A stretch of 64,000 nt of DNA from an uncultured Candidatus Binatia bacterium (lineage in GTDB: Bacteria; Desulfobacterota; Binatia; UBA9968; JAJDTQ01): contig OZ243916.1 of NCBI GenBank assembly GCA_965213675.1, positions 128,001 through 192,000 of the forward strand, given 5' to 3'. Below, piece by piece: positions 43,604-54,935 of this stretch (position 1 is the first letter of the stretch; every line of letters begins with the position of its first letter). Below the pieces are notes generated by a model. That model made no database searches, was not told the DNA's origin, and saw only the letters and a list, made by a program, of their open reading frames with translations. Made by a program: the position numbers and the translations under genes.

Positions 43604-46600
43604 GTGGGTTGTTGCGGTTCGTGGTCGGCAATGCGGGACACAGGGGGCTCGATGCCGATGAGCGGTGACGGTTCGGACACGAACTCAAGAGACACCACTG
43701 TTTCCTGTCGGCGGGGCGTATTGCCTCGTCGGTTGACGCATCGGCTGGGGGAAAGTGACCGCCCGGCGCACCGTGCCGCCGCATTCACCCCGCAGCTTCT
43801 CCGGCTGAGTCTCCCCTCGCGGTCGCCAGCGCCCAGGCGGCCCTCCGGCATGCCCATTGCCTCGACTGCCCCGGCGCCGCTCTTGCGTGTTCCAAGCGCG
43901 TCATTCTCACGGTCACGGTTCTCACTGCCACGCGCGGGTTCCGCCATCTGGGGCCTGTTCGCTGCGCTGGCCCTGCTGCTGCTCGGCCTCGCGCCCGTAG
44001 CCTCTGCGGTCGACGACGATCCGTTGTCGGCCATGCCGGAGGTATCGATCACCGCGGGGCCGGACATCACATTGGGGCGGGAGGCGGTGTTCACGTTGAC
44101 GGCGGCCCCGGCGCCATCGGCGGCGTTGGAGGTCAAGGTGGCGGTGACCGAGACCGATTCGAGCGGCGACGCGGTGGAGAGCACGCGTCGCGTGACCATC
44201 CCGGTGGGCGGAACCGTAGAGTTGCGCCTTGGCACGCCGTACAACAAGGTCGGCGATCCCGACAATCCCGGTGACGCCGACGAACCGGACCGCAGGTACA
44301 CGGCGGCACTCGTTTCCGGGGCGGGCTACGCGGTGTCGGGCGACGCCAGCCGGGCGGAGGTGTCGGTGTTTGATCCGCCAATGGTGGTGTTCCACGACGC
44401 CAAGGGCACGGAGGGGAGCGCTCTCGTATTCACGGCCAAGCTGACGAGTCCTTCGCCTGGGGGTGTGTCGGTTTTCTGGGAGACGGCTGGTTTGTGGGAG
44501 CGGGACATGGTCCGGGAGGCGGAGGCGGGTGTGGACTACGAGACCGCCAGCGGGACGCTGGACTTCGCGTTGGGTGAGGTGGAGAAGACGCTGACGGTGG
44601 AGACGTACGACAACACCCGCAACGACGTGGACAAGCTTTTCCAGGTGAGGATGACTGGCGCGAAACGGATCATGCAAAGCAGGCGATTTCCCCACGCGGT
44701 GGGCACGATCCTGGACGATGACGATCCGGGGGTGAGTGTGCATATACACGACGCGGAGGGCGCGGAGGGGAGCGTCCTGGAGTTTTCGGTGACGTTGTCG
44801 AAGCCGTCGCCTGGGGGAGTGTGGGTCACATGGGTGACGGCGGACGGGGCGGCGAAGGCGGGTGTGGATTACGAGGCGGCCAGCGGCAGGCTGGAATTTG
44901 CGTTGGGCGAGGTGAAGAAGACGCTGTCGGTGCGGACGCTGGACGACGCTCACAATGATTCGGGCGAAACGTTCCATGTGGTGCTTGACGGCACGAAGGG
45001 CGTGAGGAACCCCCGGGTCGGCGGACGCTTCCACGCCACGGGCACTATCCTCGACGACGACAACTGGCCGTCGTTCACGCCGGAGGTTTCGGTTTCCGCC
45101 GGGTCGGACGTCACAGAGGGCGGCGACGCGGTGTTCACGCTCACCGCCGACCCGCCGCCGCAGGCGCCGCTGGCGGTCGAGGTCCAGTTCAAGGCTCCGG
45201 TCGGGGAATTCACCGCGTTGGATTCCCAGCACGCGAAAGTGGAATGGGTGACGATTCCAGCGGGCGGGACGGTGCAATGGAAGGTGTCGACCGAAGACGA
45301 CGAGACCGACGAGCCGGACGGCCTGGTCTCGGCGACGCTCGTCCCCGGCGCGGGCTACACAGTGTCCGCCACCGCTCGCCTGGCCGCGGTGGCGATCACC
45401 GACGACGACGATCCGGATGACGCGGGCGTGAGCGCCACCATCCACGACGCCCAAGCCACGGAGGGGAGCGACATCGTGTTCTCCGTCACCCTGTCGGAGC
45501 CCTCGCCGGGCGGCGTGTGGATCTCTTGGGCGACCCTTGACTGGCCGACCGCCCTGGCGGACATCGACTACGAGTCCGCCAGCGGCAGGCTGGAGTTCGC
45601 TGTGGGTGAGGTGGAGAAAACCCTGTCGGTGCGGACGCTCGGCGATAACCGCCATGAGATGGACGAGGCCTTTCATGTGGTGTTTGAGAACTCGGACGGC
45701 GTGATGAGCCCTTCGGCCGGGGGGCGCTTCCACGCCGCGGGCACCATCCTCGACGACGATCCACCCGCGATCATGCCGGAGGTTTCAGTCGTTGCCGTCG
45801 CGGACGTGACCGAAGGCGGCGACGCGGTGTTTACTTTGACGGCGGACCCGGCGCCGCCGGCGCCGCTGGCGGTCGATGTCCGGATCAATGCCCCGGCCGG
45901 GGATTTCACCGGGTTGGAACCCGGCGGTGCGGCAATCGAATGGGTGATGATTCCACCGAGCGGCACGGCGCAGTGGAAGGTGCCGACCGAAAACGACGAG
46001 ACCGACGAGCCGGACGGCTTGGTTACGGCGACGCTTGTCCCCGGCGCGGGATACACGGTGTCGTCTACCGCCCGCTTGGCCGCGGTGGCGGTCTTCGACG
46101 ATGACGATCCGGAGGCTGCGGGTGTGAGCGCCACCATCCACGACGCGCAAGCCACGGAAGGGAGCGATGTCGTGTTCTCCGTCACTCTGTCCGAGCCCTC
46201 GCCGGGCGGCGTGTGGATATCCTGGTCGACTCTTGACTGGCCGACCGCAGAGGCGGGCGTCGACTACGAGTCCGCCAGCGGCAGGCTGGAGTTCGCGGCA
46301 GGCGAGGTGGAAAAAACCCTGTCGGTGCGGACGCTCGACGATGACCACAACGAGGTGGACGAGGCCTTCCATGTGGTGTTCGACAATTCGGAGGGCGTGA
46401 CGAGTCCTTCGGCGGGTGGGCGCTTTCACGCCACGGGCATCGTCATCGACGACGACGATCCGGGTGTGAGTGCCACCATCCACGACGCGCAAGGCACGGA
46501 GGGGAGCGACATCGTATTCTCCGTCACTCTGTCGGAGCCCTCGCGGGGTGACGTGTGGATCTCTTGGGCGACTTTTGATTGGTCGTCCACCGCCGAGGCG

Positions 46601-49600
46601 GGCATCGACTACGAGTTCGCCAGCGGCAGGCTGGAGTTCGCGGCAGGCGAAGTGAAGAAGACCCTGTCCGTGCGGACGCTCGACGACGACCGCCATGAGG
46701 CAGACGAAGTTTTCCATGTGGTGTTTGGCGGTACGAAGGGCGTGAGGAACGCTCAGGTCAGCGGGCGTTTCAACGCCACTGGCACCATCATTGACGACGA
46801 TCCGGTGGTGCCGGAGGTTACGATCACGGGCGGCGCGGACGTAACGGAGGGCGGCGATGCGCTGTTCACATTGAAGGCGGCCCCGGCGCCGGTGGCGGCG
46901 CTGACGGTGGAGGTTCATTTGAAGGCGCCGACGGGGGAGTTCACGGCGTTGGCGTCTGACGGGGCGAAGGTGGAGCGCGTGACGATACCGACGGGCGGGA
47001 CGGCGCAATTGAAGGTGGCGACCATCGACGACACGACGGACGAGCCTGACGGGTCGGTCAGTGCGACGCTGGTGGCGGGGGAGGGGTACACGGTGTCGGC
47101 GACGGCGGGGCAGGCTGCGGTGTCGGTACTGGACAACGATGACCCGGCGCCGGTGGTGCCGGAGGTTACGATCACGGGCGGCGCGGACGTAACGGAGGGC
47201 GGCGATGCGCTGTTCACATTGAAGGCGGCACCGGCGCCGGTGGCGGCGCTGACGGTGGAGGTTCATTTGAAGGCGCCGACGGGGGAGTTCACGGCGTTGG
47301 CGTCTGACGGGGCGAAGGTGGAGCGCGTGACGATACCGACGGGCGGGACGGCGCAATTGAAGGTGGCGACCATCGACGACACGACGGACGAGCCTGACGG
47401 GTCGGTCAGCGCGACGCTGGTGGCGGGGGATGGTTACACGGTGTCGGCGACGGCGGGGCAGGCTGCGGTGCCGGTACTGGACAACGATGACCCGGCGCCG
47501 GTGGTGCCGGAGGTTACGATCACGGGCGGCGCGGACGTAACGGAGGGCGGCGATGCGCTGTTCACATTGAAGGCGGCACCGGCGCCGGTGGCGGCGCTGA
47601 CGGTGGAGGTTCATTTGAAGGCGCCGACGGGGGAGTTCACGGCGTTGGCGTCTGACGGGGCGAAGGTGGAGCGCGTGACGATACCGACGGGCGGGACGGC
47701 GCAATTGAAGGTGGCGACCATCGACGACACGACGGACGAGCCTGACGGGTCGGTCAGCGCGACGCTGGTGGCGGGGGATGGTTACACGGTGTCGGCGACG
47801 GCGGGGCAGGCTGCGGTGTCGGTACTGGACAACGATGACCCGGCGCCGGTGGTGCCGGAGGTTACGATCACGGGCGGCGCGGACGTAACGGAGGGCGGCG
47901 ATGCGCTGTTCACATTGAAGGCGGCACCGGGGCCTGCGGCGGCGCTGACGGTGGAGGTTCATTTGAAGGCGCCGACAGGGGAGTTCACGGCGTTGGCGTC
48001 CGACGGGGCGAAGGTGGAGCGCGTGACGATACCGACGGGCGGGACGGCGCAATTGAAGGTGGCGACCATCGACGACACGACGGACGAGCCTGACGGGTCG
48101 GTCAGCGCGACGCTGGTGGCGGGGGATGGTTACACGGTGTCGGCGACGGCGGGGCAGGCTGCGGTGTCGGTACTGGACAACGATGACCCGGCGCCGGTGG
48201 TGCCGGAGGTTACGATCACGGGCGGCGCGGACGTAACGGAGGGCGGCGATGCGCTGTTCACATTGAAGGCGGCACCGGCGCCTGCGGCGGCGCTGACGGT
48301 GGAGGTTCATTTGAAGGCGCCGACGGGGGAGTTCACGGCGCTGGCGTCCGACGGGGCGAAGGTGGAGCGCGTGACGATACCGACGGGCGGGACGGCGCAA
48401 TTGAAGGTGGCGACCATCGACGACACGACGGATGAGCCTGACGGGTCGGTCAGCGCGACGCTGGTGGCGGGGGATGGTTACACGGTGTCGGCGACGGCGG
48501 GGCAGGCTGCGGTGTCGGTTCTGGACAACGATGACCCGGCGCCGGTGGTGCCGGAGGTTACGATCACGGGCGGCGCGGACGTAACGGAGGGCGGCGATGC
48601 GCTGTTCACATTGAAGGCGGCACCGGCGCCTGCGGCGGCGCTGACGGTGGAGGTTCATTTGAAGGCGCCGACGGGGGAGTTCACGGCGCTGGCGTCCGAC
48701 GGGGCGAAGGTGGAGCGCGTGACGATACCGACGGGCGGGACGGCGCAATTGAAGGTGGCGACCATCGACGACACGACGGACGAGCCTGACGGGTCGGTCA
48801 GCGCGACGCTGGTGGCGGGGGAGGGGTACACGGTGTCGGCGACGGCGGGGCAGGCTGCGGTGTCGGTTCTCGACAACGATGACCCGGCGCCGGTGGTGCC
48901 GGAGGTTACGATCACGGGCGGCGCGGACGTAACGGAGGGCGGCGATGCGCTGTTCACATTGAAGGCGGCCCCGGCGCCTGCGGCGGCGCTGACGGTGGAG
49001 GTTCATTTGAAGGCGCCGACGGGGGAGTTCACGGCGCTGGTGTCCGACGGGGCGAAGGTGGAGCGCGTGACGATACCGACGGGCGGGACGGCGCAATTGA
49101 AGGTGGCGACCATCGACGACACGACGGACGAGCCTGACGGGTCGGTCAGCGCGACGCTGGTGGCGGGGGAGGGTTACACGGTGTCGGCGACGGCGGGGCA
49201 GGCTGCGGTGTCGGTTCTCGACAACGATGACCCGGCGCCGGTGGTGCCGGAGGTTACGATCACGGGCGGCGCGGACGTAACGGAGGGCGGCGATGCGCTG
49301 TTCACATTGAAGGCGGCCCCGGCGCCTGCGGCGGCGCTGACGGTGGAGGTTCATTTGAAGGCGCCGACGGGGGAGTTCACGGCGCTGGCGTCCGACGGGG
49401 CGAAGGTGGAGCGCGTGACGATACCGACGGGCGGGACGGCGCAATTGAAGGTGGCGACCATCGACGACACGACGGACGAGCCTGACGGGTCGGTCAGCGC
49501 GACGCTGGTGGCGGGGGATGGTTACACGGTGTCGGCGACGGCGGGGCAGGCTGCGGTGTCGGTTCTCGACAACGATGACCCGGCGCCGGTGGTGCCGGAG

Positions 49601-52600
49601 GTTACGATCACGGGCGGCGCGGACGTAACGGAGGGCGGCGATGCGCTGTTCACATTGAAGGCGGCACCGGCGCCTGCGGCGGCGCTGACGGTGGAGGTTC
49701 ATTTGAAGGCGCCGACGGGGGAGTTCACGGCGCTGGCGTCCGACGGGGCGAAGGTGGAGCGCGTGACGATACCGACGGGCGGGACGGCGCAATTGAAGGT
49801 GGCGACCATCGACGACACGACGGATGAGCCTGACGGGTCGGTCAGCGCGACGCTGGTGGCGGGGGATGGTTACACGGTGTCGGCGACGGCGGGGCAGGCT
49901 GCGGTGCCGGTTCTCGACAACGATGACCCGGCGCCGGTGGTGCCGGAGGTTACGATCACGGGCGGCGCGGACGTAACGGAGGGCGGCGATGCGCTGTTCA
50001 CATTGAAGGCGGCACCGGCGCCTGCGGCGGCGCTGACGGTGGAGGTTCATTTGAAGGCGCCGACGGGGGAGTTCACGGCGTTGGCGTCCGACGGGGCGAA
50101 GGTGGAGCGCGTGACGATACCGACGGGCGGGACGGCGCAATTGAAGGTGGCGACCATCGACGACACGACGGACGAGCCTGACGGGTCGGTCAGCGCGACG
50201 CTGGTGGCGGGGGATGATTACACGGTGTCGGCGACGGCGGGGCAGGCTGCGGTGTCGGTTCTCGACAACGATGACCCGGCGCCGGAGGTATCGATCACCG
50301 CGGGGCCGGACATCACATTGGGGCGGGAGGCGGTGTTCACGCTGACGGCGGCCCCGGCGCCATCGGCGGCGTTGGAGGTCAAGGTGGCGGTGACCGAGAC
50401 CGATTCGAGCGGCGACGCGGTGGAGAGCACGCGTCGCGTGACCATCCCGGTGGGCGGAACCGTAGAGTTGCGCCTTGGCACGCCGTACAACAAGGTTGGC
50501 GACCCGGACAATCCTGGTGACGCCGACGAACCGGACCGCAGGTACACGGCGGCACTCGTTTCCGGGGCGGGCTACGCGGTGTCGGGCGACGCCAGCCGGG
50601 CGGAGGTGTCGGTGTTTGATCCGCCAATGGTGGTGTTCCACGACGCCAAGGGCACGGAGGGGAGCGCTCTCGTATTCACGGCCAAGCTGACGAGTCCTTC
50701 GCCTGGGGGTGTGTCGGTTTTCTGGGAGACGGCTGGTTTGTGGGAGCGGGACATGGTCCGGGAGGCGGAGGCGGGTGTGGACTACGAGACCGCCAGCGGG
50801 ACGCTGGACTTCGCGTTGGGTGAGGTGGAGAAGACGCTGACGGTGGAGACGTACGACAACACCCGCAACGACGTGGACAAGCTTTTCCAGGTGAGGATGA
50901 CTGGCGCGAAACGGATCATGCAAAGCAGGCGATTTCCCCACGCGGTGGGCACGATCCTGGACGATGACGATCCGGGGGTGAGTGTGCATATACACGACGC
51001 GGAGGGCGCGGAGGGGAGCGTCCTGGAGTTTTCGGTGACGTTGTCGAAGCCGTCGCCTGGGGGAGTGTGGGTCACATGGGTGACGGCGGACGGGGCGGCG
51101 AAGGCGGGTGTGGATTACGAGGCGGCCAGCGGCAGGCTGGAATTTGCGTTGGGCGAGGTGAAGAAGACGCTGTCGGTGCGGACGCTGGACGACGCTCACA
51201 ATGATTCGGGCGAAACGTTCCATGTGGTGCTTGACGGCACGAAGGGCGTGAGGAACCCCCGGGTCGGCGGACGCTTCAAAGCCACGGGCACTATCCTCAA
51301 CCACGATCCCATGCCCAAGGCCTATATGGCCCGTTTCGGGCGTGCGGTGGCCGAGCAAGCGCTCGACGCCATCGCGAATCGCCTGGAGGCGCCGCGCAGG
51401 GACGGCTTCGAGGCCCGGTTTGCCGGTTACTCGCTCGCGGTGGGCGCGCCAGTGATTGACGCAGCGAATCGTCCGCCGAGCCGCGGCGCGATGGCGCATC
51501 CGCCCGGTATGGCGCCACACAGGGTCGGCGACAGCGTCACGAGACTGAACAGCGCCCCCCATGGCGCCATGGGCGTGAACCTCGGCCACAGGCTCGCGGG
51601 TAGCGCGTTCACGCTGACCGGTAGCGAAGCCGCCGAGGGGGGTAGCGTCGCATTCTGGGGCCGGGGCGCACAAACCCGCTTCGACAGCCGCGACGGCACG
51701 CTCGATCTCGAAGGAGAAATCGCCACCGCCCTGCTCGGCGCGGATTACGCGAAAGACAACTGGCTCGTCGGCGTGACGCTTGCGCACAGCCGGGGCGACG
51801 GCGATTACCGCGACGGGGCCGTTGCAGACCGCATGCCGGCAAATGGCGGTTCCGCGGTCAGATCCGGAATGGACCGATCCGTGGAGACCTCGTTGACGGC
51901 GGCGATTCCCTATGCGGCTTGGCGCGGCTCGGAGCGTTTGCAGGTCTGGGGCGCCACCGGCTACGGCAGGGGCAGGGCGACGCTCGTCCCCGGCGCTGGC
52001 CCGGCGATCAGGACGGACATGGACTGGACGATGGCGGCGGCGGGCCTGAGAAGCGCGCAGATTCTACCCGCCGCGGGCGGCGGCCCCTCGCTGGCGCTGG
52101 TTTCCGATGCGCTTTGGGCGCGCACGACGGCCGAAGCCGCCACCGGCCTCGCGGCAGCGGACGCCGGAGTGACGCGGTTGCGGCTCGGCTTGGAGGGAGG
52201 CTGGGCGTTCAACCTTGGCGACGGCACACTGAAGCCGAAGCTCGAACTCGGCGCCCGTCACGACGCCGGCGACGCCGAGACCGGTTTCGGGGTGGAACTC
52301 GGCGGCGGCCTTGCCTGGGTCGATTGGAATCGCGGCCTGCGCATCGAAATCGACGGCCGCACGCTGGTTGCGCATGCGGACAGTGGGTTCGAAGACCATG
52401 GGTTTTCGGCTTCCCTTGCCTACGACCCGACGCCGGACTCGGCGCGCGGGCTGTCGCTGACCCTACGCCAGGTTGCCGGCGCACCGGCCAAGGGCGGCCT
52501 CGACGCACTGTTCTCGAACAATCCGCTTGGGCATCGTCATGGCGGCGTGTTCGGCCAGGTTTACGCCGCGCGCTGGTCCACCGAGGCCGCCTACGGCCTG

Positions 52601-52804
52601 CCCGCGTTCGGCGGGAGGTTCACCGGTAGCCCGCATGTGGGCTACGGCACCTCAGCCTTTGGCCGCGACCTGAGCGTGGGCTGGCGGCTGACGCCGGCCC
52701 ATGGCGGCCCGGCCCTCTCGCTCGGGGCGCTGCTCACGCGGCGGGAGGCTGTGGCTGCAGCGCTGGAGTACGGCGTCGGCGTGGAGGCCAGGGCCCGGTG
52801 GTGA
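43604..52804 (+). CDS. Giant Calx-beta repeat surface protein with C-terminal autotransporter-like beta-barrel (true start uncertain, about 43652-43850)
   Basis: Signal-like segment AIWGLFAALALLLLGLAPVASA; repeated EG...F.V.L...A.AG.DY...G.L.F..GE...DD...TI.DDD; barrel motifs WGRG, LGADY, GARHDAGDAETGFG; ends in W. Confidence 0.92.
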   Translation: MGCCGSWSAMRDTGGSMPMSGDGSDTNSRDTTVSCRRGVLPRRLTHRLGESDRPAHRAAAFTPQLLRLSLPSRSPAPRRPSGMPIASTAPAPLLRVPSASFSRSRFSLPRAGSAIWGLFAALALLLLGLAPVASAVDDDPLSAMPEVSITAGPDITLGREAVFTLTAAPAPSAALEVKVAVTETDSSGDAVESTRRVTIPVGGTVELRLGTPYNKVGDPDNPGDADEPDRRYTAALVSGAGYAVSGDASRAEVSVFDPPMVVFHDAKGTEGSALVFTAKLTSPSPGGVSVFWETAGLWERDMVREAEAGVDYETASGTLDFALGEVEKTLTVETYDNTRNDVDKLFQVRMTGAKRIMQSRRFPHAVGTILDDDDPGVSVHIHDAEGAEGSVLEFSVTLSKPSPGGVWVTWVTADGAAKAGVDYEAASGRLEFALGEVKKTLSVRTLDDAHNDSGETFHVVLDGTKGVRNPRVGGRFHATGTILDDDNWPSFTPEVSVSAGSDVTEGGDAVFTLTADPPPQAPLAVEVQFKAPVGEFTALDSQHAKVEWVTIPAGGTVQWKVSTEDDETDEPDGLVSATLVPGAGYTVSATARLAAVAITDDDDPDDAGVSATIHDAQATEGSDIVFSVTLSEPSPGGVWISWATLDWPTALADIDYESASGRLEFAVGEVEKTLSVRTLGDNRHEMDEAFHVVFENSDGVMSPSAGGRFHAAGTILDDDPPAIMPEVSVVAVADVTEGGDAVFTLTADPAPPAPLAVDVRINAPAGDFTGLEPGGAAIEWVMIPPSGTAQWKVPTENDETDEPDGLVTATLVPGAGYTVSSTARLAAVAVFDDDDPEAAGVSATIHDAQATEGSDVVFSVTLSEPSPGGVWISWSTLDWPTAEAGVDYESASGRLEFAAGEVEKTLSVRTLDDDHNEVDEAFHVVFDNSEGVTSPSAGGRFHATGIVIDDDDPGVSATIHDAQGTEGSDIVFSVTLSEPSRGDVWISWATFDWSSTAEAGIDYEFASGRLEFAAGEVKKTLSVRTLDDDRHEADEVFHVVFGGTKGVRNAQVSGRFNATGTIIDDDPVVPEVTITGGADVTEGGDALFTLKAAPAPVAALTVEVHLKAPTGEFTALASDGAKVERVTIPTGGTAQLKVATIDDTTDEPDGSVSATLVAGEGYTVSATAGQAAVSVLDNDDPAPVVPEVTITGGADVTEGGDALFTLKAAPAPVAALTVEVHLKAPTGEFTALASDGAKVERVTIPTGGTAQLKVATIDDTTDEPDGSVSATLVAGDGYTVSATAGQAAVPVLDNDDPAPVVPEVTITGGADVTEGGDALFTLKAAPAPVAALTVEVHLKAPTGEFTALASDGAKVERVTIPTGGTAQLKVATIDDTTDEPDGSVSATLVAGDGYTVSATAGQAAVSVLDNDDPAPVVPEVTITGGADVTEGGDALFTLKAAPGPAAALTVEVHLKAPTGEFTALASDGAKVERVTIPTGGTAQLKVATIDDTTDEPDGSVSATLVAGDGYTVSATAGQAAVSVLDNDDPAPVVPEVTITGGADVTEGGDALFTLKAAPAPAAALTVEVHLKAPTGEFTALASDGAKVERVTIPTGGTAQLKVATIDDTTDEPDGSVSATLVAGDGYTVSATAGQAAVSVLDNDDPAPVVPEVTITGGADVTEGGDALFTLKAAPAPAAALTVEVHLKAPTGEFTALASDGAKVERVTIPTGGTAQLKVATIDDTTDEPDGSVSATLVAGEGYTVSATAGQAAVSVLDNDDPAPVVPEVTITGGADVTEGGDALFTLKAAPAPAAALTVEVHLKAPTGEFTALVSDGAKVERVTIPTGGTAQLKVATIDDTTDEPDGSVSATLVAGEGYTVSATAGQAAVSVLDNDDPAPVVPEVTITGGADVTEGGDALFTLKAAPAPAAALTVEVHLKAPTGEFTALASDGAKVERVTIPTGGTAQLKVATIDDTTDEPDGSVSATLVAGDGYTVSATAGQAAVSVLDNDDPAPVVPEVTITGGADVTEGGDALFTLKAAPAPAAALTVEVHLKAPTGEFTALASDGAKVERVTIPTGGTAQLKVATIDDTTDEPDGSVSATLVAGDGYTVSATAGQAAVPVLDNDDPAPVVPEVTITGGADVTEGGDALFTLKAAPAPAAALTVEVHLKAPTGEFTALASDGAKVERVTIPTGGTAQLKVATIDDTTDEPDGSVSATLVAGDDYTVSATAGQAAVSVLDNDDPAPEVSITAGPDITLGREAVFTLTAAPAPSAALEVKVAVTETDSSGDAVESTRRVTIPVGGTVELRLGTPYNKVGDPDNPGDADEPDRRYTAALVSGAGYAVSGDASRAEVSVFDPPMVVFHDAKGTEGSALVFTAKLTSPSPGGVSVFWETAGLWERDMVREAEAGVDYETASGTLDFALGEVEKTLTVETYDNTRNDVDKLFQVRMTGAKRIMQSRRFPHAVGTILDDDDPGVSVHIHDAEGAEGSVLEFSVTLSKPSPGGVWVTWVTADGAAKAGVDYEAASGRLEFALGEVKKTLSVRTLDDAHNDSGETFHVVLDGTKGVRNPRVGGRFKATGTILNHDPMPKAYMARFGRAVAEQALDAIANRLEAPRRDGFEARFAGYSLAVGAPVIDAANRPPSRGAMAHPPGMAPHRVGDSVTRLNSAPHGAMGVNLGHRLAGSAFTLTGSEAAEGGSVAFWGRGAQTRFDSRDGTLDLEGEIATALLGADYAKDNWLVGVTLAHSRGDGDYRDGAVADRMPANGGSAVRSGMDRSVETSLTAAIPYAAWRGSERLQVWGATGYGRGRATLVPGAGPAIRTDMDWTMAAAGLRSAQILPAAGGGPSLALVSDALWARTTAEAATGLAAADAGVTRLRLGLEGGWAFNLGDGTLKPKLELGARHDAGDAETGFGVELGGGLAWVDWNRGLRIEIDGRTLVAHADSGFEDHGFSASLAYDPTPDSARGLSLTLRQVAGAPAKGGLDALFSNNPLGHRHGGVFGQVYAARWSTEAAYGLPAFGGRFTGSPHVGYGTSAFGRDLSVGWRLTPAHGGPALSLGALLTRREAVAAALEYGVGVEARARW
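44035..45052 (+). repeat. ~1.0-kb direct repeat, copy 1
   Basis: Near-identical to 50281-51298 (offset 6246 bp, in frame). Confidence 0.93.
46802..50281 (+). repeat. 10 x 348-bp (116-aa) tandem repeat
   Basis: Unit starts at 46802, 47150, 47498, 47846, 48194, 48542, 48890, 49238, 49586, 49934. Confidence 0.97.
50281..51298 (+). repeat. ~1.0-kb direct repeat, copy 2
   Basis: Near-identical to 44035-45052. Confidence 0.93.
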
Positions 52805-52994: not shown

Positions 52995-53945
52995 ATGCTG
53001 TTCATCAAGGAGACCCCGGCGGCGACCCTCATTTCCATGGCGCAGGCCATCGAGGCCGTGGAGGAGTCCCTGGTGGAGACCGCCCGCGGCAACGCCGTGG
53101 TGCTGCCGCGCCGGCGTATCCACCACACCAACCGGATGCTCTTCGGCGTGTTGCCGGGCTCGTTCAAGGGCGCCATGGGCGCGTACCTCCAGACTGACCA
53201 GGACCGCGCCATCCACCACGAAAGCGTCATCCTCTACAGCGTCGACACGGGCGAGCCGCTGATCCTGTTCCAGGACTGCGGCATCAACGAGCTTCGCACC
53301 GGCGCGGCCGGGGGCGTCGGCGCCAGGTATCTGGCTCCTGCCGGTGCCACCCGGGTGGCCGTGATCGGGAGCGAGAAGCACGCCTTCACCCAGCTTGAGG
53401 CGGTGTGCGCCGTGCGCGCCATCGAGGCCGTCCGGGTGTTCAGCCCCACCCAGGCGAACCGGCGTCGTTTCGCCGAACGCGCGGGGCCATCCCTGGACGT
53501 GGAGGCGACGGCGGTGGACAGCGCCGAGGCCGCGTTGGAGGGCGCGGACATCGTCATTACCGCCACCAATGCCCAGAGTCCGGTAGTTGACGGCCGCAGC
53601 CTGGATCCCGGCATGCACGTCACCTCCATCGCCAACGGCGACAAGACCCGCGTGCGCCAGGAACTCGACCACGACGCCATGCGCCGGGCCGCGCGTGTGT
53701 GCGTCACGTCCAAGGCCACCGTGGAAGCCAACGAAAGCGACCTGTTCCGGGCGGCGCGGGACGGGGTGTTGGACTGGGAAGGCGTGTGCGAGCTGGGCGA
53801 CGTCATCCTGGGCAACGCGCCAGGACGCACCGCGCCCGAAGAGATCACGTTGTTCAAGCTTCAGGGAATGGGGATCATGGACCTCGCCGTGGGGCTACGG
53901 GCGTACGAGGCCGTGAAGGACTCGGCGTCCGCGCAGCGGCTGTAA
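52995..53945 (+). CDS. Ornithine cyclodeaminase / mu-crystallin family protein
   Basis: LRTGAAGG, VIGS, ADIVITAT, GR...EITLFK.QGMGIMDL. Confidence 0.92.
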   Translation: MLFIKETPAATLISMAQAIEAVEESLVETARGNAVVLPRRRIHHTNRMLFGVLPGSFKGAMGAYLQTDQDRAIHHESVILYSVDTGEPLILFQDCGINELRTGAAGGVGARYLAPAGATRVAVIGSEKHAFTQLEAVCAVRAIEAVRVFSPTQANRRRFAERAGPSLDVEATAVDSAEAALEGADIVITATNAQSPVVDGRSLDPGMHVTSIANGDKTRVRQELDHDAMRRAARVCVTSKATVEANESDLFRAARDGVLDWEGVCELGDVILGNAPGRTAPEEITLFKLQGMGIMDLAVGLRAYEAVKDSASAQRL

Positions 53946-53961
53946 CGGACGGCGGGCCTCC

Positions 53962-54756
53962 TCAGCGCCGGGGCAGCCGCAGGATTTCCCGCCGCACCAT
54001 GTCCTGCCAGGACGTCCCGGGCCGGTCGGTCCAGTTGCCGGGCAGGTCGATGATCCGACCCTTGCGCTTGAACGCGTGGGCCAGGCCCAGAGCTTCGGCC
54101 AGCAGCGCTTGGTGCCGCCGCCGTGCCCGCGGGCGCCCGAAGGTGCGGCCCACGGGGTTGTCGACGCATACGGCCCGGGGCGGCTTGACCCGTTCCACGA
54201 TGTCGCGCACCGTGCCGATCAGGAGCGTCGGGATGCCCGAGGCTTCCACTGCGTTGGCGACGAGACTCACGGTCTCGTGGCAGTAGGGTCAGTAGGGGAC
54301 CATCAGCGCGAGGTCCACGCGCATGGACGCGAGCTTGCGCGCCAGCTCCGGCGCAAGCTTCCCGTTGACGGCGTCGTGATCGGAGACGCCCCCGTAGATG
54401 GAGAAGTGTCCGGGAGCCACGCTGCCGACCACGCCGTTGGCCGCGAGCTCCTGGAGCGCCCGTCTGGGAAAGGCGACTTCGGCGTCCATGCGCACGTGCC
54501 TGCCCACCGGCGAATGATGATCCACCGTCACGGCCACGTTCGGGTCCGCGGCGATGCGCCGGTGGCTCGTGTCGCCCCCGGCGGTGAAGGCGCGCTGGCG
54601 GGTCTCGCGGATGGCCGCGCTGGTGACCAGGCCGACGCGCATTTCGTTCAACGGCTTGGCGAGAGGCTGCCATGCGATCCTGGGCGCGCGCCGGAGCTTT
54701 CGCGGCGGCTTCGGAGCCGAGCGTTCCGCCAGTATGGGCCGATACTCCATTGCCAT
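53962..54756 (-). CDS. Glycine/betaine/sarcosine/D-proline reductase selenoprotein B-like protein (Sec at codon 156)
   Basis: ORFs 54289-54756 and 53962-54270 are in the same frame, joined by LMVPY-UGA-PYCHETVSLVANAVEASGIPT; KPLNEMRVGLVTSA, GDTSHR, FP, PPR motifs. Confidence 0.88.
54246..54286 (-). promoter_or_regulatory. Bacterial SECIS-like hairpin
   Basis: CUACUGC/GCAGUGG lower stem, ACGAGAC/GUCUCGU upper stem, CGUGA loop starting 17 nt after the UGA. Confidence 0.72.
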
Positions 54757-54935
54757 GTTCCATCCTCCCGGTTCGTTGTCACCGCGCCTTGCGGCGGAAG
54801 CTCCTGGCGCGCGTCACGGCCGCCGCGTCCTGTCCGTCGGATCGGTATCCACCGGCGCCTTCGTCGCGATCCGGTTGCCTTTCTCAAGCGTCGTCCAGTG
54901 AACGCCCCTCAACGCGTTCCTTCCCACGCGCCGCT

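Follow-up and report, generated by a model that had tools for sequence, protein, structure and literature searches.

The window analysed here is a stretch of 64,000 nucleotides (nt) from an uncultured Candidatus Binatia bacterium (contig OZ243916.1, positions 128,001 to 192,000), and on its reverse strand lies a gene that appears as two in the list of open reading frames (ORFs). We conclude, with a probability of roughly 0.85, that the two form a single gene whose 264-residue product is a selenoprotein in the PrdB-like branch of the GrdB/PrdB superfamily, that an in-frame UGA within the gene is read as selenocysteine (Sec), and that the protein most likely works without a pyruvoyl subunit of the PrdA/GrdE type. 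The two ORFs, one of 155 amino acids (aa) at 54289..54756 and one of 102 aa with a GTG start at 53962..54270, both on the minus strand, occupy the same frame and are separated by one lone TGA at 54289-54291, in the codon context ...GTC CCC TAC TGA CCC TAC TGC CAC GAG ACC GTG.... Reading through this TGA gives 264 residues (...LMVPY-U156-PYCHETVSLVANAVEASGIPT...), with the motif VPY-U-PYCH at the junction. The 264-codon frame, which runs from 54756 to 53965, has no other interruption before a second TGA closes it. Because a Sec codon resembles a stop, gene finders wrongly divided the gene in two. The initial annotation had joined the two entries into one frame split by a single TGA, and the sequence and its translation agree; its further proposal of a 264-aa selenoprotein made by readthrough is borne out by the open frame, the conserved TGA, the Sec/Cys column, the hairpin and the Sec machinery described below.

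To determine how widely the in-frame TGA is kept, we surveyed 60 relatives, 27 within the genus and 33 from the rest of the order. Matches that span the full length and contain a single in-frame TGA occur in 22 of the genus members (72-86% identity) and in 16 of the others (45-50% identity). The TGA stands at the same codon in every orthologue found (38 genomes, 45-86% identity over residues 1-264), and these orthologues stop at TGA, TAA or TAG, at the same or a nearby place. For five genus members (G010, G014, G017, G019 and G023), a PrdB-like gene was not found with this query. Of 52 loci inspected, 51 have the motif P[YF]-TGA-P-x-C-H, two paralogues at 31-34% identity among them; 13 of the loci (L034-L046) duplicate genomes already sampled, L042 excepted. 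Of 201 genomes sampled from the phylum, 58 gave a family match at E <= 1e-25, and each of the 76 matches listed contains an in-frame TGA. Protein databases hold mostly the front part of such genes: 43 of 62 matches are 154-158 residues long, and are therefore cut at the UGA codon.

The region beyond the TGA evolves as coding sequence. Among 14 genus sequences (91 pairs), codons 157-264 show 2601 synonymous versus 1005 non-synonymous differences in frame, as against 400:3131 and 221:3304 in the two shifted frames of the same region, and 3032 of the 4319 base differences after the TGA fall at codon position 3. This pattern indicates that the frame after the TGA is under purifying selection. Homologues that lack Sec point to the same codon: cysteine occupies column 156 in 14 of 14 full-length homologues (261-335 aa, 28-36% identity), and C156, P157, C159 and H160 are invariant in their alignment. 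A profile search of 1.84 billion representatives returned 3664 family clusters at E <= 0.001, 198 of them at E <= 1e-30. In the alignment of best matches (150 rows, i.e., 149 representatives and the query), most rows have Cys at the Sec column, while 10 have no residue there and 8 of those end at or just before it. Some representatives (P0151, P0157, P0168 and P0201) have a Trp at this column, for example in PVW-PVC; these may be selenoproteins mistranslated by gene calling with TGA as Trp.

The source genome encodes the machinery for Sec insertion. selA (592.7 bits), selB (378.6 bits) and selD (377.3 bits) all pass their curated cut-offs and lie together in one cluster at C1:2713784-2718389, on the 3.97-Mb contig (C1) that holds the window; selD has one in-frame TGA of its own. 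ARAGORN located a tRNA-Sec at C1 c[323213,323307] and another on a small contig, C4, at [3174,3268]. C4 repeats other C1-like matches and the genome is rated 8% contaminated, so C4 may be a second strain or a duplicate and not the site of a true second copy of tRNA-Sec. The initial annotation had staked its reading on Sec machinery in the genome and on Cys or Sec at residue 156 of the homologues, and both are there: selA, selB, selD and tRNA-Sec are all encoded, and the column holds Cys or Sec. Contigs from four public runs, all of one study, show no other letter at the TGA; they are not independent support, because the runs are possibly the assembly's own source. In all four, the contigs fragment over 54163-54305, where the Sec motif and the hairpin lie and the gene is best conserved; identical sequence shared by several related strains would be expected to cause such breaks. 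Single-base variants occur in these contigs at 54532, 54540 and 54556. A look for RNA runs listed none.

Immediately past the UGA, the RNA is predicted to fold into a selenocysteine insertion sequence (SECIS) hairpin that starts at UGA + 10 nt, with an apical loop, CGUGA, starting at UGA + 17 nt. Its upper stem is ACGAGAC/GUCUCGU and its lower stem G-C/C-G, and the second loop position is a G, followed by U. The 81-nt RNA after the UGA has a minimum free energy (MFE) of -28.9 kcal/mol (z = -2.69; 2 of 200 shuffles fold equally well), and the 25-nt hairpin alone (54281..54257) has one of -11.2 kcal/mol (z = -2.52; 4 of 200 shuffles equal it). Across 34 distinct sequences, 90.9% of 340 cells are paired, compared with 30.0-45.9% when the partners are slid by 1-3 columns. 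Three of the 10 pairs show compensatory change (CG->UA in 8 rows, GC->CG in 2 rows and AU->UA in 2 rows), and the paralogues L062/L063 retain the hairpin with a different stem (CGGUCC/GGACUG, versus GAGACC/GGUCUC) and with different amino acids. Comparable hairpins start 10-25 nt past the UGA of selD, grdA and three grdB genes of the same genome; the one in selD reads GGUGCAGG-UCC-UGCACC, which we take to resemble the SECIS of E. coli fdhF.

The published model of bacterial SECIS (bSECIS) elements specifies a loop of 3-9 nt, an upper stem of 4-16 bp, a G within the first two loop positions, a UGA-to-loop distance of 16-37 nt and an MFE <= -7.5 kcal/mol (PMC13188914, section 5 and Fig. 2 legend). 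The hairpin falls within all four published limits on loop (5 nt), stem (7 bp), spacing (17 nt) and energy (-11.2 kcal/mol). Folding thus agrees with the two-stem hairpin first noticed by eye, with its loop CGUGA beginning 17 nt downstream, and the further remark that a SECIS just 3' of the UGA should have an early loop G fits the bSECIS model. Five independent lines, all read from sequence, agree (machinery, TGA conservation, selection, the Sec/Cys pair and the SECIS), and we regard it as nearly certain that this is a genuine selenoprotein gene. The features of the locus are collected in Table 1.

Table 1. The PrdB-like selenoprotein gene, its predicted signals and its neighbours (positions in the window)
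Feature	Position	Strand	Basis
PrdB-like selenoprotein coding sequence	53965..54756	-	translation; TIGR04483 E 1.4e-36, residues 24-242; full-length orthologues; synonymous bias on both sides of the TGA
UGA read as Sec (U156, motif U-P-Y-C-H)	54289..54291	-	TGA kept in all orthologues; Cys in 14/14 full-length homologues
Predicted SECIS hairpin: 2-bp lower stem, 1-nt bulges, 7-bp upper stem, loop CGUGA	54257..54281	-	folding; 34-sequence pairing test; same-genome hairpins
True stop codon, TGA	53962..53964	-	translation; orthologue stops
Putative Shine-Dalgarno-like site GGGAGGA, 6 nt before the ATG at 54756	54763..54769	-	read from sequence
OCD/mu-crystallin family protein, 316 aa, convergent	52995..53945	+	PF02423 E 2.9e-51; below every NCBIfam equivalog cut-off
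Fused MFS/spermidine-synthase-like membrane protein, 785 aa	54936..57293	-	NF037959, 54.6 bits > 40
Cupin, 146 aa	57297..57737	-	PF07883
3066-aa Calx-beta/autotransporter ORF	43604..52804	+	Calx-beta, 250.6 bits

We next placed the protein among known families. The nearest NCBIfam family is TIGR04483 (PrdB), with which residues 24-242 align at E 1.4e-36 over profile positions 15-234 of 238; the score of 126.1 bits does not reach the equivalog cut-off of 300. GrdB-type models match residues 89-196 only, at 21-23 bits, and TIGR01918 gives 23.5 bits against a cut-off of 65.45, over profile positions 280-386 only, which leaves the protein outside GrdB. In Pfam, no family scored above threshold and PF07355 did not appear at E <= 0.1; there was a Thioredoxin_3 trace of 14.2 bits at residues 151-177. 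Relatives behave alike on the PrdB model. Ten PrdB-like proteins of the phylum score 99.9-210 bits, all below 300, and six others score 84-136 bits (three from the order, including a paralogue, two Cys forms and the window protein). Together with the partner searches described below, such scores indicate that PrdB-like selenoproteins have radiated broadly outside the PrdB equivalogs and that, where tested, they often occur in genomes with no PrdA/GrdE-family match.

An AlphaFold model from 34 sequences (mean predicted local distance difference test score 92.4; predicted template modelling score 0.91) places U156 between a strand (149-153) and a helix (157-172) in an alternating beta/alpha domain. 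Nine positions are invariant across homologues: H80, D91, C156, P157, C159, H160, E171, R194 and D199. A sequence search of the PDB returned 0 matches at E <= 1, and Foldseek against the PDB nothing at E <= 0.001. The wide VIA-align comparison gave a best Z of 8.6, with LacI/periplasmic-binding-type and other Rossmann-like folds, a value within the tool's common range.

The pyruvoyl proprotein PrdA is encoded in the cluster of PrdB and forms a complex with it (PMC11229817), and we searched for a PrdA/GrdE-family (PF09338) gene at several scales. First, no PF09338 gene lies in the window (C1:128001-192000); the prdA and grd matches found genome-wide are all outside it, in line with the initial annotation, which had seen no such partner there. 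Second, neighbours were scanned at 12 loci of the order (59 genes) and at 14 loci of the phylum (66 genes), and none of them is a PF09338 gene. The phylum survey used 14 of 20 fetched loci, six being dropped when a motif search did not locate the gene, and 66 of 142 candidate ORFs, short or overlapping ones being left out. Its 14 loci have no recurrent partner, and radical SAM genes stand in 4 of the 14, not always adjacent. Third, three genomes that have the Sec orthologue and SelB (G044, G048 and G049, each 98% complete and in 50-190 contigs) gave no PF09338 match. In another genome, G120, an RnfC gene (L088:8237-9568; 509 bits on TIGR01945, and 199 bits against a cut-off of 490 on the PrdC model) is found 1.4 kb downstream from the PrdB-like Sec gene that scores highest on the PrdB model among those tested (210 bits).

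Elsewhere in the source genome, Grd genes are well represented. They include GrdA (208 bits versus a 130-bit cut-off, with a TGA), GrdC-beta (511 bits versus 450) and three GrdB-family selenoproteins (425-505 bits on TIGR01918), each adjoining a GrdE/G-type alpha subunit; none of the three reaches the glycine, sarcosine or betaine equivalog cut-off. The genome has five PF09338 matches, one of which does not adjoin a grdB. An orphan GrdE/GrdG-like gene lies at C1:2497087-2498427. The orphan adjoins an SDR gene and, on the opposite strand, a 394-aa ORF that looks like a TauD-type dioxygenase by eye only. Grd-related loci are at C1:11728-14484, C1:1182665-1185330, C1:3018215-3020769, C1:2427130-2429135 and C1:2497087-2498427. 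In total, at least six Sec genes are encoded: the PrdB-like gene, selD, grdA and three grdB.

These genes bear on two earlier statements about the host. That the organism is non-clostridial and probably aerobic is supported: its relatives are labelled Candidatus Binatia, and some as metagenome-assembled genomes (MAGs) of Thermodesulfobacteriota or Syntrophobacterales, and the genome has a COX1 heme-copper oxidase, which makes aerobic respiration possible. The suggestion that the function is probably not Stickland fermentation holds for this gene but not if extended to the organism, which encodes GrdA, GrdC-beta and three GrdB/alpha pairs; to say that it has no Stickland-type chemistry would therefore be wrong.

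How might the protein work? Judging by the parts present, the UGA at codon 156 would be decoded by Sec-tRNA(Sec) delivered by SelB, which would be recruited by the hairpin starting 10 nt past the UGA. In the predicted model, Sec156 would sit at the N-terminus of a helix preceded by a beta-strand, within a Rossmann-like alpha/beta domain, and would form with Cys159 a U-x-x-C redox pair, followed by the invariant His160. By analogy with PrdB and GrdB, the selenolate could attack an electrophilic carbon, or a sulfur or selenium, of a small substrate; Cys159 would then resolve the adduct to a selenenyl-sulfide, and a thiol system such as thioredoxin might re-reduce the pair. In PrdB itself, Sec attacks the alpha-carbon of pyruvoyl-bound D-proline and PrdC re-reduces the enzyme (PMC11229817). 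The window protein would most likely work without a pyruvoyl PrdA/GrdE-type subunit. Given 126 versus 300 bits, no prdA neighbour and orthologues in three PF09338-negative genomes, the protein is probably not a canonical D-proline reductase, and on these comparisons of sequence and gene content we are fairly confident that it does not act as a PrdA-dependent one.

Among the alternatives, the one that fares best is that the protein serves as the B subunit in a genuine pyruvoyl-dependent reductase, either D-proline reductase or a Grd-like 'protein B', with its alpha/pyruvoyl partner encoded elsewhere, for example by the orphan at C1:2497087-2498427, and that it draws on the genome's GrdA/GrdC or on thioredoxin. 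PrdB is indeed the best family match and covers nearly the whole profile, but 126 bits is far from 300, and the ten phylum proteins (99.9-210 bits) also remain below. One of the five PF09338 matches does lie away from any grdB, and GrdA and GrdC-beta are above their cut-offs; the orphan, however, scores 49.7 bits on the PrdA model, whose cut-off is 700, and three orthologue-bearing genomes have no PF09338 match. The convergent, genus-syntenic OCD-family gene would suit such a role, in that its family includes a proline-forming enzyme, but this neighbour falls short of all equivalog cut-offs and is not conserved beyond the genus. The distribution of the orphan also differs from that of the PrdB-like gene. 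An orthologue of the orphan (at least 75% identity) is present in G010, G014 and G023, all without a PrdB-like gene, and was not found with this query in G005, G028, G032 and the g6 genomes, all with one. We had considered a shared phylogenetic profile as support for the orphan as partner and rejected it, since the profiles do not match. Overall, we judge a B-subunit role to be quite improbable.

A second alternative is that the UGA mostly terminates, so that the locus makes a 155-residue protein with or without a separate 102-residue product from the GTG at 54270, as a split gene or a young pseudogene would. Gene callers and public records do give the relatives as 155-aa 'hypothetical proteins', and the GTG is 6 codons past the TGA, but the six codons in between specify P-Y-C-H-E-T, including the invariant P157, C159 and H160. 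The TGA, moreover, is kept in orthologues down to 45% and in paralogues down to 31% identity, in-frame selection past it is strong, homologues have Cys at the Sec column, and both a SECIS hairpin and the Sec machinery are present; we consider termination very improbable. Least tenable of all is a UGA read as Cys, Trp or Gly through near-cognate readthrough or an alternative code: W does appear at the aligned column in some representatives, as TGA=Trp gene calling would yield, but TGA is a stop in this genome, since this gene itself terminates at TGA and its orthologues at TGA, TAA or TAG, and the genome encodes a complete Sec system together with further selenoprotein genes that carry the same signal.

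Several observations weigh against our preferred reading, a selenoprotein that works without a pyruvoyl subunit. Some concern the hairpin. It lies inside the conserved coding stretch C-H-E-T-V-S-L-V, so that its conservation is owed in part to the protein. Of the 34 rows, 8 leave pair 21-37 open and 18, this window among them, leave the innermost pair (27-31) open; covariation is confined to 3 pairs, and the aligned rows are kin. An Rfam search of 53900-54800 (E <= 10) returned no SECIS family, with a chance snoRNA trace only. Others concern the partner. Of five genomes searched, two carriers of the orthologue (G028 and G050) do have PF09338 genes; G044, G048 and G049 are draft genomes, in which absence of PF09338 means not found and is not proof of absence; and the orphan GrdE/GrdG-like gene of the source genome makes a PrdA-like partner possible. 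Lastly, there is no solved relative by sequence (PDB) or by fold (Foldseek, VIA-align), and the mechanism is drawn by analogy.

Compared with PrdB of Clostridioides difficile and Acetoanaerobium sticklandii (TIGR04483), the window protein is colinear over profile positions 15-234 of 238, similar in size (264 aa, and 25.7 kDa for C. difficile PrdB) and similar in the placement of Sec (U156, and U151 in C. difficile PrdB; PMC11229817). The PrdB motif is UxxC (PMC13188914, PMC1088965), which the window protein has as U156-P-Y-C159. It differs from PrdB in its score (126 versus 300 bits), in having no prdA adjoining it or in syntenic loci, in having orthologues in genomes without a PrdA/GrdE-family match, and in its host, which is Binatia-like with a heme-copper oxidase, unlike the fermenting clostridia. 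Homology to GrdB/GrdF/GrdH (TIGR01918, PF07355) is distant: residues 89-196 correspond to their C-terminal part, with Sec at the equivalent place, but the ~200-residue N-terminal domain is missing (264 aa, against a two-domain length of about 430 aa). Its motif, U-P-Y-C-H-E-T, has Thr at the third position, unlike the UxxCxxC of GrdB (PMC13188914).

The Cys-form homologues come from MAGs of Actinomycetota (Acidimicrobiales and Pseudonocardiales). They are 28-36% identical to the window protein over 69-96% of the query and have the nine invariant columns named above; they differ in having Cys for Sec, in length (261-335 aa) and, in several, in a C-terminal extension ending in C-x-C. Their labels read 'glycine/sarcosine/betaine reductase selenoprotein B family protein', 'D-proline reductase (dithiol) PrdB' or 'hypothetical', and a truncated Sec-form relative is labelled 'hypothetical protein'.

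The protein also fits the description of the 'proline reductase PrdB' family of metagenome surveys in its PrdB homology, its UxxC motif with Sec, its Cys homologues and its occurrence outside clostridia. In the Sargasso Sea, PrdB-homologous UxxC selenoproteins were the third most abundant known family, with 42 genes and few Cys homologues (PMC1088965, Tables 1-3), and the Global Ocean Sampling data yielded 235 Sec and 110 Cys forms of PrdB from 38 samples (PMC2398784, Table 2). PrdB-homologous selenoproteins are abundant in oxic marine samples (PMC1088965, PMC2398784, PMC1976440). The delta-1 symbiont of Olavius, a deltaproteobacteria-like organism, has five PrdB genes, with GrdA and GrdB undetected (PMC1976440, Table 1), and PrdB homologues are listed for Anaeromyxobacter and Geobacter (PMC1794560, Table 3). 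The surveys lump all PrdB homologues as proline reductase and, in their passages on these proteins, do not address the missing PrdA. In literature full text, the term 'PrdB-like' was not found, and 'Binatota' and 'selenocysteine' co-occurred in a reference list only. The novelty claimed at the outset was overrated, as non-clostridial and aerobic-marine PrdB-homologous UxxC selenoproteins were in print in 2005-2008 (PMC1088965, PMC2398784, PMC1976440, PMC1794560). The family is already known; its occurrence in Binatia and the argument from the missing PrdA are small additions.

We then examined the gene neighbourhood. In the genus, a divergent gene for an NMT1-like binding protein is followed by genes for a VOC-family protein, a cupin and the PrdB-like protein on one strand, and then by the convergent OCD/mu-crystallin gene, an Amidohydro_2 gene and a molybdenum hydroxylase. 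The cupin gene ends 2-3 nt before the PrdB-like start in other genus genomes. Here, an MFS/spermidine-synthase gene without counterpart in other genus loci is inserted between the two; relatives have a VOC gene ahead of the cupin, but none was found in this window. The 3066-aa gene, between the amidohydrolase and OCD genes, is likewise an insertion relative to genus synteny; it has many near-identical ~100-residue repeats, Calx-beta domains and a C-terminal autotransporter beta-domain. Most genus loci have the OCD-family gene beside the PrdB-like one; beyond the genus it is not conserved there, and the gene context changes. Within the order, genes for Amidohydro_2, cupin, OCD-like and NMT1/TctC binding proteins recur near family members, a recurrence that we do not take as evidence because the genome has >70 Amidohydro_2-like matches. 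By tblastn, the genome also holds >30 matches to the molybdenum hydroxylase large subunit. The GGGAGGA upstream of the ATG could be a Shine-Dalgarno-like site. The neighbourhood gives leads, not a function.

One further reading seems unlikely to us as it stands: that PrdB-like proteins are self-sufficient selenoenzymes performing reductive C-N, C-S or C-halogen cleavage without a pyruvoyl partner. Here, such an enzyme might catalyse the last step of a small catabolic operon (VOC, cupin, PrdB-like), with an OCD-family imine reductase/cyclodeaminase, an amidohydrolase and a molybdenum hydroxylase as neighbours.

For the databases, the consequence is direct. Public records list the gene and its relatives as 'hypothetical proteins' of 155 residues, and the catalytic half and the selenocysteine are therefore missing for a whole clade. 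For the family, the name 'proline reductase' is probably wrong for most of the PrdB homologues counted in the ocean since 2005, because orthologues occur without a PrdA/GrdE-family match and no scored homologue reaches the PrdB cut-off. Although the locus does not represent a new type of system, it offers, with closed genomes available for many of its relatives, a usable entry point to the chemistry of PrdB homologues. A full Sec system and at least six Sec genes alongside an oxygen reductase bear on selenium demand in sponge and marine symbionts. If the self-sufficient reading were true, there would be a new selenium-dependent reaction in aerobic-capable marine and sponge-associated bacteria, and it would account for 'PrdB' being one of the oxic ocean's most abundant selenoproteins.

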